From Flammeovirgaceae bacterium UBA1842 (GTDB taxonomy: Bacteria; Bacteroidota; Bacteroidia; Cytophagales; Cyclobacteriaceae), in contig DDIU01000049.1 of the NCBI GenBank assembly GCA_002338655.1, positions 2,830 through 66,829 of the forward strand: a stretch of 64,000 nt of DNA, read 5' to 3'. Each line of letters opens with the position of its first letter. Within the stretch, counting starts at the first letter, position 1. A model generated the notes under the pieces. That model was not told the DNA's origin and made no database searches. It saw only the letters and a list, made by a program, of their open reading frames with translations. Shown here piece by piece: positions 26,117-28,057 of this stretch. Position numbers and translations under genes: made by a program.

Positions 26117-26431
26117 ATGCAGACAATAATTCCCGTTTCACTTACAGAAAGTGCCGTAGAAGAGGTTAAGAACATCATGCAAAATAAAAATATTCCTGAA
26201 GGATATAAACTAAGGGTAGGAATAAAGGGAAGTGGTGGCTGCCTCGGATTTGCGTTTATGCTAGGGTTCGACAAAAAAAAGGATAATGATATTGAATTTG
26301 AGACCAATGGCGTTCAGGTACTTGTAGAGAAAAAACATGCCATGTACCTGCTAGACATGGAAGTTGACTTCCATGATGGTGACGATGCCAGAGGGTTTAC
26401 TTTTGCTAAGAAGAGCAAGGTGGATGTATAA
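26117..26431 (+). CDS. HesB/IscA family Fe-S assembly accessory protein
   Basis: VSLTESAV, LRVGIKGSGGC and VDF...RGFTF. The C-terminal CxC is absent. Confidence 0.8.
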   Translation: MQTIIPVSLTESAVEEVKNIMQNKNIPEGYKLRVGIKGSGGCLGFAFMLGFDKKKDNDIEFETNGVQVLVEKKHAMYLLDMEVDFHDGDDARGFTFAKKSKVDV

Positions 26432-26437
26432 AGGAAT

Positions 26438-26843
26438 TTAATGGCTAAAGCCAATTATCATGCGGTTCAGCCCGTGGTAAGCATTGAGCATTTTATTATA
26501 TTAGGGAAAGGGGGTGAGTAAAATTAGCTAAAATGCTATGTTTAGTTTTGAAAGCCCAAAACCTATCGAATCCGAACTTTCATTTATGGTATTTCAATGA
26601 AGGTTAGTGGCTAAAGCCATATTGTTTATTCCTGATAAACACGCCTTAAAAGGCGTGGAAAGTGATCTAAAATCAAGTTATTTTTATTAATCATACAATA
26701 AAATGACCAATCAAATACCCTGAATTTAATATCCTAATTGTTAATTAGACCATAGTTTACTAATCCGTAAAGGTCACATCAAATTTTACCACGTGGCTTC
26801 AGCCCGTGGTAATTATAAATGACATAAAAGGGCTTTAGCCCTT
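26438..26843. repeat. REP/REPIN-like array on the 3' side of the transposase
   Basis: TGGCTAAAGCCA at 26442 and 26608, CACGCCTTAAAAGGCGTG at 26640, ACCACGTGGCTTCAGCCCGTGGT at 26788 and AAGGGCTTTAGCCCTT at 26828. Confidence 0.85.
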
Positions 26844-27269
26844 AAGCTTCTCAAACCCATACTTGTCAATAAACAATTTGTATTCTTGATCGAAAGAATT
26901 TTTTTGATGATGCACTTCTTGGTTTTTAATATAATTTCTAACTTTTTCAACTTGTGATTCACTTACAGATATAGCGAAATACTCATCCTGCCATCCGAAT
27001 TTCGTTTTAGTAAGCTTTTGTTTGTTGATCCAAAATGCCGACTCCCCCTTTATAAGTTGCATTACCTTGGCAATGGTCTGATCCGATTTCAATGAGACAA
27101 GACAATGGACATGGTCAACATATCCATTTATAAAATCAATATAAATTCCTTTGTCTTTAGCATTGGTTCTTATGTGGTCAAAAACAGGTTTTCTGATTTC
27201 CCTTTCTAGAAATGGAGCTCGGTTTTTAGTAGTCCAAACCAAATGAATCCAAACTTTTACAAATGGCAT
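26835..27269 (-). mobile_element. tnpA: HUH/Y1 transposase (IS200/IS605 TnpA-like, RAYT-like), no tnpB
   Basis: IHLVWTTKNR, HUH motif DHVH, WQDEY and catalytic Tyr in YIKNQ. Flanked by REP-like hairpins. Confidence 0.9.
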
Positions 27270-27280
27270 TTCAATTAATG

Positions 27281-27693
27281 TTAGTGGCTAAAGCCAGTTG
27301 AATCTGTTTTAGCAACACGCCTTAAAAGGCGTGGTATTTAATTAGCGAATTAAGTTTAAGTACAATCATAATCCAAGTAAAAGGCAAGGTTATTACTGGG
27401 TTGAACATGGTGGTAATAGCATTTAATAAAAATTTTTGAACTCTTATGTTCACGCTATAAAAAAGAAAGCCGTTCATATTGAAAGTTAATGGCTAAAGCC
27501 GATAAAATTTGTCTCTGATAGCCACGCCTTAAAAGGCATGGCAAATGACCCTCCCGTTAGGCAGGGCACTCAAATATTGAATTAATATTAAGAATTACGC
27601 AAGGTGATCCCCTGATTATAAAGCATACACCTAAAGATTACCACGTGGCTTTAGCCCGTGGTTATTACCCGTGACAAACAAGGGCTTTGGCTC
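27281..27693. repeat. REP/REPIN-like array on the 5' side of the transposase
   Basis: TGGCTAAAGCC at 27285 and 27490, CACGCCTTAAAAGGC(G/A)TG at 27316 and 27523, ACCACGTGGCTTTAGCCCGTGGT at 27640, and degenerate copies at ~27391 and ~27680. Confidence 0.85.
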
Positions 27694-27703
27694 AATAACT
27701 TAC

Positions 27704-28057
27704 TTAACGTTCAAGCTTCAACGACACAGTAGCTCTTTTACAATCACCAGCAATAGGGGGGTTCTCTTTTGAAAGGCTTACTTCTACACTTTCTACTTCC
27801 AATTCTTTGAGGATTCGCTGGCAGATTTGTATTACAACATGCTCCAATAATTTTGAAGGGACGGCCATAACCTCAGCAGCTATGGCATAAATTTTTTCGT
27901 AATCAACCGTTTTAGTTAGATCATCATTTGTAGCAGCAGATGAAAAATCAGCCTCTACAGTTATATTGAGTAAAAATGTATTTCCATTTTTACGTTCATG
28001 TTCATAAAATCCATGATAGGCATAAAATGAAAGCCCTTCTAAACTGATTTTACCCAT
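27704..28057 (-). CDS. folB: Dihydroneopterin aldolase
   Basis: FYAYHG, DDLTKTVDYE, SKLLEHV and KENPP. Confidence 0.93.
   Translation of the reverse strand: MGKISLEGLSFYAYHGFYEHERKNGNTFLLNITVEADFSSAATNDDLTKTVDYEKIYAIAAEVMAVPSKLLEHVVIQICQRILKELEVESVEVSLSKENPPIAGDCKRATVSLKLER

Follow-up and report, generated by a model that had tools for sequence, protein, structure and literature searches.

The window analysed here, a stretch of 64,000 nucleotides from Flammeovirgaceae bacterium UBA1842 (contig DDIU01000049.1), carries an insert of 1272 bp (positions 26432-27703) between the stop codons of a convergent iscA-like gene and folB. The insert contains a single intact gene for a 144-aa Y1/HUH transposase, tnpA, and at least nine hairpins of four types. 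Sequence comparison leads us to regard this locus as probably an old insertion of an IS200-like element that has cognate hairpin ends in single-stranded DNA (ssDNA) and a REPtron-like behaviour. The unit is composed of an outer hairpin and an inner GGCTTTAGCC hairpin, tnpA, and an inner GGCTAAAGCC hairpin followed by another outer one. The genome of the window (G000, 4.09 Mb) belongs to the genus Fulvivirga, and a sister species, G019, provides the closest comparison.

We refer to the left-end module, made of the outer hairpin H1 and the inner hairpin H2, as LE, and to the right-end module, made of the inner H3 and the outer H4, as RE. On the tnpA strand the left end reads ATTACC, H1 (CACGCCTTTTAAGGCGTG), 19 nt, H2 (TGGCTTTAGCCACTAAC), 10 nt and the ATG, and the right end reads TAA within H3 (GGGCTAAAGCCC), 20 nt and H4 (ACCACGGGCTGAAGCCACGTGGTAAT). 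Across copies, similarity is lost just beyond ATTACC at the left end and GGTAAT at the right end, and the termini of the element form a 9-nt inverted repeat (ATTACCACG / CGTGGTAAT). H1 has a stem of 7 bp, H4 one of 10-11 bp with a single bulge, and H2 and H3 are small GGC-TWWA-GCC hairpins; folded as ssDNA, the modules give predicted hairpins with z-scores of -2.7 to -4.9. Each end is built of an outer hairpin, a linker and an inner GGCT-WWA-GCC hairpin, the tips of the outer hairpins differing between the ends, and the loops read CTTTAG upstream and CTAAAG downstream of the gene. This loop polarity, together with the hairpin order and with the termini GAATTGCC / GGCAATTC found in relatives (loops TTT upstream and AAA downstream), makes the two ends mirror images. 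Alignment of the flanks in direct versus inverted orientation is uninformative for palindromic hairpins, and loop polarity and hairpin order were used instead.

The hairpin motifs listed in the original prediction, which had been made from the letters of the window, were all found within a few bases of where it had placed them. GTTA(G/A)TGGCTAAAGCC occurs at 26603-26618, 27280-27295 and 27485-27500; CACGCCTTAAAAGGCGTG is exact at 26640-26657 and 27316-27333 and has one mismatch at 27523-27540; ACCACGTGGCTT(C/T)AGCCCGTGGT occurs at 26788-26810 and 27640-27662. The hairpin said to cover the tnpA stop codon is indeed there (AAGGGCTTTAGCCC at 26828-26841), and a degenerate copy of it lies at 27680-27693. 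The prediction was also right that the modules are bipartite and mirrored, with two sequence types marking left and right ends in a REPtron-like layout, and that a solitary intact tnpA stands without tnpB; no tnpB-like open reading frame (ORF) lies near tnpA among the ORFs of the locus.

Read along the minus strand, the order is folB, RE3, 93 nt, LE3, about 150 nt, LE2-tnpA-RE1, 124 nt, LE1-remnant-RE0 with a solo H2-like hairpin, and iscA. The insert is thus best read as a same-strand, head-to-tail row of one intact element and decayed or tnpA-less derivatives, and all modules lie on the minus strand. The intact element is bounded by LE2 at 27280-27333 (inner H2 27280-27295, outer H1 27316-27333; -12.4 kcal/mol, z -4.2), whose H2 ends 10 nt upstream of the tnpA ATG, and by RE1 at 26785-26841 (outer H4 26788-26810, inner H3 26828-26841; -15.1 kcal/mol, z -4.85; 88% identical to G019), whose H3 has the tnpA stop codon in its loop. 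A decayed copy, E_B, begins with LE1 at 26603-26657, recognised by motifs and folding (inner H2 26603-26618, outer H1 26640-26657). Its cargo at 26545-26602 (minus strand) is a remnant that covers the tnpA 5' untranslated region and roughly 16 initial codons, the seventh of them a stop. These 58 nt align locally to the 5' end of the intact tnpA with a score of 37, against 18.3+/-2.4 for shuffled sequences (z=7.8), and fall in a repeat family with 82% identity. The copy would end with RE0 at 26456-26478 (minus strand), a degenerate long outer hairpin of H4 type (ACCACGGGCTGAACCGCATGAT on the minus strand) that folds poorly now and is better kept in its G019 orthologue. The outermost feature of the array, at 26437-26452 on the minus strand and 6 nt past the iscA stop, is the solo inner-type, H2-like hairpin (TTTAATGGCTAAAGCC on the plus strand). 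The original prediction had overlooked the two hairpins at 26437-26478 and the tnpA remnant. On the folB side stand LE3 at 27485-27540 (H2 27485-27500, H1 27523-27540 with its mismatch), which has no tnpA remnant after it, and RE3 at 27640-27693 (H4 27640-27662 and the degenerate H3 27680-27693), 10 nt from the folB stop. For a further degenerate copy proposed near 27391 we found no statistical support: the candidate, a very degenerate H4 at 27391-27418 (ATTACCACCATGTTCAACCCAGTAAT on the minus strand), rests on an 8-mer match (z=0.8), and the stretch is absent from G019.

The forward and reverse units had been thought to pair around unique spacers. With the unit drawn as LE-(tnpA)-RE, those pairs straddle the junctions of successive units. 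The unit is drawn in this way because of the tnpA remnant beside LE1, because the relatives described below have the gene bracketed by small hairpins, and because a complete unit that lacks tnpA stands elsewhere in the genome. The spacers that separate the units, such as the unique one at 26658-26784 (no strand assigned) at the RE1/LE1 junction (58% aligned identity to G019), have no match elsewhere in the genome, are not alike among themselves (z <= 1.7) and bear no likeness to tnpA, and an origin as captured or duplicated DNA was rejected. The suggestion that the stretches of 19-21 nt between the hairpins of a module are captured DNA also fails, since these linkers are two related sequence types common to the copies and to both species.

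In the 4.09-Mb genome the 18- and 23-nt motifs occur in the array and in one mini-element, at C24:155746-155892, and nowhere else, which excludes chance. The C24 mini-element lacks tnpA and has the order H1-H2-33 nt-H3-H4 with the inner hairpins face to face; as ssDNA, its H2 pairs with H3 to give one long stem. The remaining 12 matches to GGCTAAAGCC in the genome are all in coding sequence, and the hairpins are not a dispersed family of repetitive extragenic palindromes (REPs). The genome-wide count that the original prediction had proposed, with absence of the motifs elsewhere named as a sign against it, hence gave a mixed answer: tnpA is single-copy, as expected, but the hairpins recur at one other locus only. 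No target duplication is seen around the C24 unit or the array, and a short A/T-rich (A)TT precedes each LE. Beside the mini-element, at C24:155930-156200, two direct repeats of about 110 nt (ATGGCRTGGCGGTGTGTGACGG...TTTTTTGGCCTCAAAAAATGAAG) lie next to runs of N.

The transposase gene (26835-27269, minus strand) encodes a protein that matches Pfam Y1_Tnp (PF01797) at 3.8e-29 and 101.7 bits. It passes the NCBIfam IS200/IS605 model (NF033573; 75 bits, cut-off 55) and fails the REP_Tyr_transpos model (NF047646; 36.6 bits, cut-off 80). Its best matches in the PDB are the TnpA proteins of ISDra2 (E=3e-8), IS608 and a Sulfolobus IS200, and no structure of a REP-associated tyrosine transposase (RAYT) is among these matches. 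The catalytic residues are complete, with D52-H53-V-H55 as the HuH motif, W93-Q94 as the W motif and Y113-IKN-Q117-EV-H120-H121 as the Y motif, and the motif residues are invariant in the sequence alignment. The Y motif is therefore YIKNQ..HH and not the Y---NP of RAYTs, and the RAYT identity given to the protein in the original prediction does not hold. Y---Q--HH, an HuH motif DH[IV]H, a W motif WQ and a length of about 148 aa are the diagnostics of TnpAY1 subclass 1.2, which has a low intragenomic copy number and occurs in Bacteroidetes and Cyanobacteria (Quentin, Siguier, Chandler and Fichant 2018, BMC Genomics 19:475, PMC6006769, Table 1). Because motifs, length, low copy number and phylum all match, we place the tnpA of the window, by its sequence, in subclass 1.2 of class 1.

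A tblastn search found one copy of tnpA in G000, plus a 43%-identical paralogue on contig C17. This second subclass-1.2 gene (C17:56285-57340, outside the window) has the motif YIRNQKAHH and is accompanied by hairpins of its own kind (ATGGTTGAAACCAT, CCCACGGTTTTC...GAAAACCGTGGG and ACCGTTTTAACGGT). A module of about 150 nt upstream of it recurs 3' of the gene in direct orientation and is followed by a tnpA N-terminal remnant, which makes this locus another head-to-tail arrangement.

The hairpin layout extends far beyond Fulvivirga. The search for protein relatives yielded more than 5000 clusters, the best 120 of them at 64-76% identity, and 80 loci were fetched from Bacteroidota, Acidobacteriota and Calditrichia. 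Within 150 nt 3' of the stop, GGCTAAAGCC (at most one mismatch) is found in 58 of 79 loci, mostly at -6 to +11 nt from the stop and often with the stop codon in the loop, and 41 of 80 loci have GGCTTTAGCC upstream, its median distance to the ATG being 24 nt. In flanks of 300 nt the octamers GCTTTAGC and GCTAAAGC were counted 39-91 times, compared with 0-1 times for composition-matched controls. An outer hairpin of 8-10 bp, with a CT(A/G)AAG tip and a CAATTC flank, is seen in 49 loci, 10-60 nt beyond the inner one. Outer stems vary by lineage with compensated (double) changes at 8 of 9 pairs; since hairpin formation was the basis on which the counted sequences had been picked, the share of paired positions is a circular measure, and the information lies only in how varied the compensated stems are.

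Most genomes of these relatives have one copy of the close gene, and a degenerate outer-hairpin pattern occurs in 0-3 copies per genome, one Cyclobacterium excepted. Cyclobacterium sp. SYSU L10401 (G049; loci L143 and L144) has 14 outer and about 40 inner hairpins in two clusters set among ordinary genes, each of one orientation, one around tnpA and the other between tandem paralogous lipoprotein-like genes of 369-403 aa. The apparent enrichment of TGGCTAAAGCC in Flavobacterium genomes was considered as a sign of further elements and rejected, as it is coding sequence for Leu-Ala-Lys-Ala. Many relatives have two to four tandem copies of an outer half-stem with its flank, e.g., GGAGGCAATTCA or AAAGCTGGAGGCAATTCA, starting in or by the hairpin loop, either downstream of tnpA (L052, L073, L103, L110, L121) or upstream of it (L063, L070, L071). 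Repeated rounds of cutting and rejoining could have left such copies, as could slippage at the hairpin.

One genome, the chromosome of a metagenome-assembled Bacteroidales (G044), holds four copies of a 640-652-bp unit of hairpins, tnpA and hairpins that are 84-89% identical. Three of them (L145, L146, L148) are bounded by terminal inverted repeats (TIRs) of about 22 bp (GGGTCATCACAGAAATGCGTAC / GTACGCATTATTGTGATGAACC). Target direct repeats of 8 bp flank two copies (ATAAAATT, AAATAAAA), and a 7-bp match is found at a third; the fourth copy (L147) has an unmatched left repeat and an in-frame TGA. The TIR shell with 8-bp duplications is the mark of another, DDE-type mode of mobilisation. No comparable shell was visible around the Fulvivirga units on inspection by eye.

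The insertion site is defined by two well-recognised genes. On the left lies an iscA/HesB-like gene for Fe-S assembly (26117-26431, plus strand; Pfam Fe-S_biosyn 2.5e-13, TIGR00049 above cut-off), and on the right folB, encoding dihydroneopterin aldolase (27704-28057, minus strand; Pfam FolB 3.1e-33, TIGR00525 above cut-off). The synteny of this site in relatives, which the original prediction had proposed to check, was examined across the genus. In 13 other Fulvivirga species the site is empty, with 3-50 nt between the stop codons of iscA and folB. Because the two genes abut in these species, the array at 26432-27703 is an insertion into the iscA-folB gap. Four further species (L022, L025, L026, L019) have a gap of about 300 nt filled by unrelated sequence, which indicates repeated filling of the gap between the convergent genes; none of the array hairpins is present at the site in these four or in the 13.

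The array is shared by the sister species G019, where its order and its site are unchanged and no units have been gained. The two genomes are distant, with a synonymous divergence (dS) of 0.57-0.95 in four neighbouring genes. For tnpA, dS is 0.60 and the ratio of nonsynonymous to synonymous divergence (dN/dS) is 0.044, compared with dN/dS of 0.009-0.067 in the housekeeping neighbours. Hairpin cores are 85% identical between the species, or 91% when two degenerate ones are left out, and whole modules 75-88%, whereas the spacers between units, at 42-58%, resemble unconstrained sequence. On this comparison the gene and the hairpins are constrained, including the hairpins of gene-less units, or else homogenised to a constrained master copy. 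Some modules are eroding, namely LE2-H1 in G019 (5 of 18 positions changed), RE0 and the H3 of RE3. The decayed copy has as its cargo the block at 26482-26600, in which G000 and G019 are 82% identical, far more than in the spacers (42-58%). About 65 nt of the block lack similarity to tnpA, and no ORF in it is conserved (in G000 the reading frame stops at codon 7); its high identity may reflect gene conversion, a promoter or a small RNA.

Inheritance of the array has been vertical between G000 and G019, and the gene is absent from the site in the 13 other species and patchy overall: 2 of 25 Fulvivirga genomes have an orthologue of tnpA, the rest having empty sites or 65%-identical variants elsewhere. 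G019 also holds an orthologous mini-element and one extra solo LE. The H1 hairpin was found in 3 of 41 related genomes (G000, G019 and G031), the only ones with a close tnpA. G031 belongs to a different family within the order; its tnpA (L005), 62% identical, is followed downstream by the same 18-nt H1 (CACGCCTTAAAAGGCGTG), twice. This sharing suggests that the element has passed from one family to another or that the enzyme keeps the hairpin under tight constraint.

How such a system would work can be sketched from these features. A Y1/HUH dimer would bind the hairpins in ssDNA, the single-stranded state probably arising on the lagging-strand template, and would cut and rejoin near the foot of the outer hairpin, presumably at ATTACC... 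and ...GGTAAT. LE-x-RE units, with or without the gene, could in this way be mobilised rarely, and the C24 mini-element may be one product. The mirrored ends would present the same substrate on opposite strands at the two ends, as REPs do around a RAYT. The row itself may have arisen by repeated local reinsertion or by an old tandem duplication, the spacers being too diverged to discriminate between the two. The four G044 copies at 84-89% identity count for this account as mobility elsewhere. GC skew suggests the tnpA sense strand as the G-rich, lagging-template strand; this is one locus where gene orientation confounds the comparison, and the observation has little weight.

Several points weigh against an IS200-like element with cognate ends as the explanation. 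When empty sites were sought for the solo LE of G019 and for the mini-element on C24, the flanks, rearranged or orthologous, yielded no exact ends, and no clean filled/empty pair fixes the exact ends of a hairpin-bounded unit. The unique 60-130 nt spacers between units are explained neither by precise reinsertion nor by recognisable duplication. Since the ends are mirrored, the peel-and-paste mechanism of IS608 is not simply transferable. As the G044 copies sit in a TIR shell, their multi-copy spread alone is not evidence of Y1-driven movement, and another transposase, not the Y1 enzyme, may have moved them. Finally, a tnpA that is single-copy at one site and has been under strong purifying selection since the species split fits a domesticated gene better than a selfish insertion sequence (IS).

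This last point leads to an alternative that we consider possible, though rather unlikely, in which the locus is a domesticated REPtron-like system: the host keeps the Y1 enzyme and, as substrates for it, the hairpin modules with and without tnpA. These modules would have a role for the host, for example in ending transcription or stabilising mRNAs where the two genes converge, or in signalling for replication or recombination, and the row would be a small REPIN-like population in cis. Strong purifying selection on a single fixed copy favours a benefit at the level of the host or of the element. The single-copy gene has been inherited vertically with its locus at a dN/dS as low as that of folB or iscA, the hairpin cores of decayed copies are kept far above the neutral level, and relatives usually have one close copy per genome. 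The array fills a convergent gap, with a T-rich tail after one hairpin, and subclass 1.2 is said by Quentin et al. (PMC6006769) to be a group that 'does not share IS properties'. Domestication accords less well with the patchy occurrence in the genus, where two of 25 genomes have an orthologue and the others are empty or hold 65%-identical variants elsewhere, which suggests gain by transfer. In addition, the hairpins are undispersed, most genomes having 1-3 copies; decay affects several modules in one or the other lineage (the five changes in LE2-H1 of G019, the degenerate RE0 and H3 of RE3); and the protein fails the RAYT model. A broader proposal, which we put forward only as a speculation with the odds well against it and a little more doubtful than domestication alone, is that class 1 (IS200-type) transposases of subclass 1.2 became REPtron-like separately from RAYTs. 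A single-copy, selected enzyme would then service a small local set of ssDNA modules, each of two hairpins, which the host maintains for its own use; modules would stay selected after the gene decays, and whole units could also be carried in a separate TIR shell.

That the hairpins are common features of intergenic DNA (bidirectional terminators or RNA elements, for example) beside a dead-end IS200 copy, with no functional link to its transposase, is very improbable. The position between convergent genes and the terminator-like matches (4 versus 1.6 expected) are what such structures would give. Nevertheless, the same hairpin types stand at fixed distances from the start and stop of the gene across the 80 loci of three phylogenetic groups (Bacteroidota, Acidobacteriota, Calditrichia), H1 is restricted to genomes with the gene, and the hairpins are absent at the site in other species of the genus; moreover, an Rfam search of the locus gave no relevant match, and a T tail is missing from most outer hairpins of the family. 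Least credible of all is a spacer-acquiring or cassette array like CRISPR or integron attC arrays, with captured foreign DNA as the variable stretches, because, for all its order, single orientation and unique spacers, the 19-21-nt linkers show homology from copy to copy and across the two species, the order is the same in both with no units gained, the 60-130-nt spacers diverge at a neutral rate and match nothing else in the genome, and the units are too few and irregular in length.

Read as an old IS200-like insertion with cognate hairpin ends, the locus agrees with subclass 1.2 in DH[IV]H, WQ, YIKNQ.EHH, length, low copy number, occurrence in Bacteroidota and lack of tnpB. It differs from the 2018 description, in which subclass 1.2 is listed without REPs and without typical terminal secondary structures (PMC6006769), by its conserved mirrored bipartite hairpins and tnpA-less copies, and by the presence of hairpin modules in most of the 80 relatives. 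The REP search in that study required a GT[AG]G foot, and the array hairpins have no GTAG foot. The departure is from the published description of the subclass and not from its protein clade. The authors of that study regard TnpAY1 class 3 and subclass 2.6, with their 'atypical secondary structures', as intermediates between IS and REPtrons (PMC6006769). These are also Y1 genes flanked by non-canonical hairpins missed by a GTAG-based search; the protein clades and hairpin sequences differ, and class 3 hairpins can reach about 600 copies per genome.

With the IS200 group (the TnpA elements of IS200, IS608 and ISDra2) the locus shares the Y1/HUH fold family, the small size of the element and subterminal hairpins, and no target duplication is apparent where its hairpins bound the element. 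IS200 itself carries a pair of hairpins in its left end. The end hairpins of IS608 and ISDra2 are like-oriented on one strand and there are no terminal inverted repeats, whereas here the arrangement is mirrored, outer-inner-gene-inner-outer, with two hairpins per end and the 9-nt terminal inverted repeat. The group inserts 3' of a fixed tetra- or pentanucleotide without target duplication and has several near-identical copies per genome; G000 and G019 have one intact copy each, and the gene of the window stands at a fixed site under strong purifying selection.

RAYT, REPtron and REPIN systems have reportedly been described by Nunvar in 2010, by Bertels and Rainey in 2011 and by Ton-Hoang in 2012. 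The likeness lies in a single-copy Y1 gene flanked by inverted palindromic repeats, in the co-occurrence of gene and repeats, and in a gene-less repeat doublet, represented here by the C24 mini-element, that can fold to one long hairpin. On the other side, RAYTs are class 2 TnpA proteins with Y---NP and the TnpA of the window is a class 1 protein that fails NF047646, and REPs, which have a GT[AG]G foot, are scattered through the genome in tens to hundreds of copies, in contrast to hairpins confined to their own locus and one further site. The RAYT/REPIN reading of the original prediction consequently stands as a description of how the system seems to work and falls as a statement of membership, on the protein model, the GTAG foot and the dispersal.

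A full-text literature search returned nothing relevant on the hairpin sequences or on later work on subclass 1.2. As judged from sequence, the locus clearly gives a known transposase subclass a DNA partner that had not been described, with selection on both partners. Subclass 1.2 is a large and very conserved Y1 family for which the only systematic study lists no DNA partner. The locus supplies a candidate substrate, with two hairpin types per end and their exact sequences, as well as a natural mini-element and a pair of species in which selection on gene and hairpins is visible. Should activity on these short hairpins be found, the enzyme would be a new sequence-specific HUH tag or nuclease for ssDNA. 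The finding also bears on the role of solitary IS200-like genes and on the transition from IS to REPtron.

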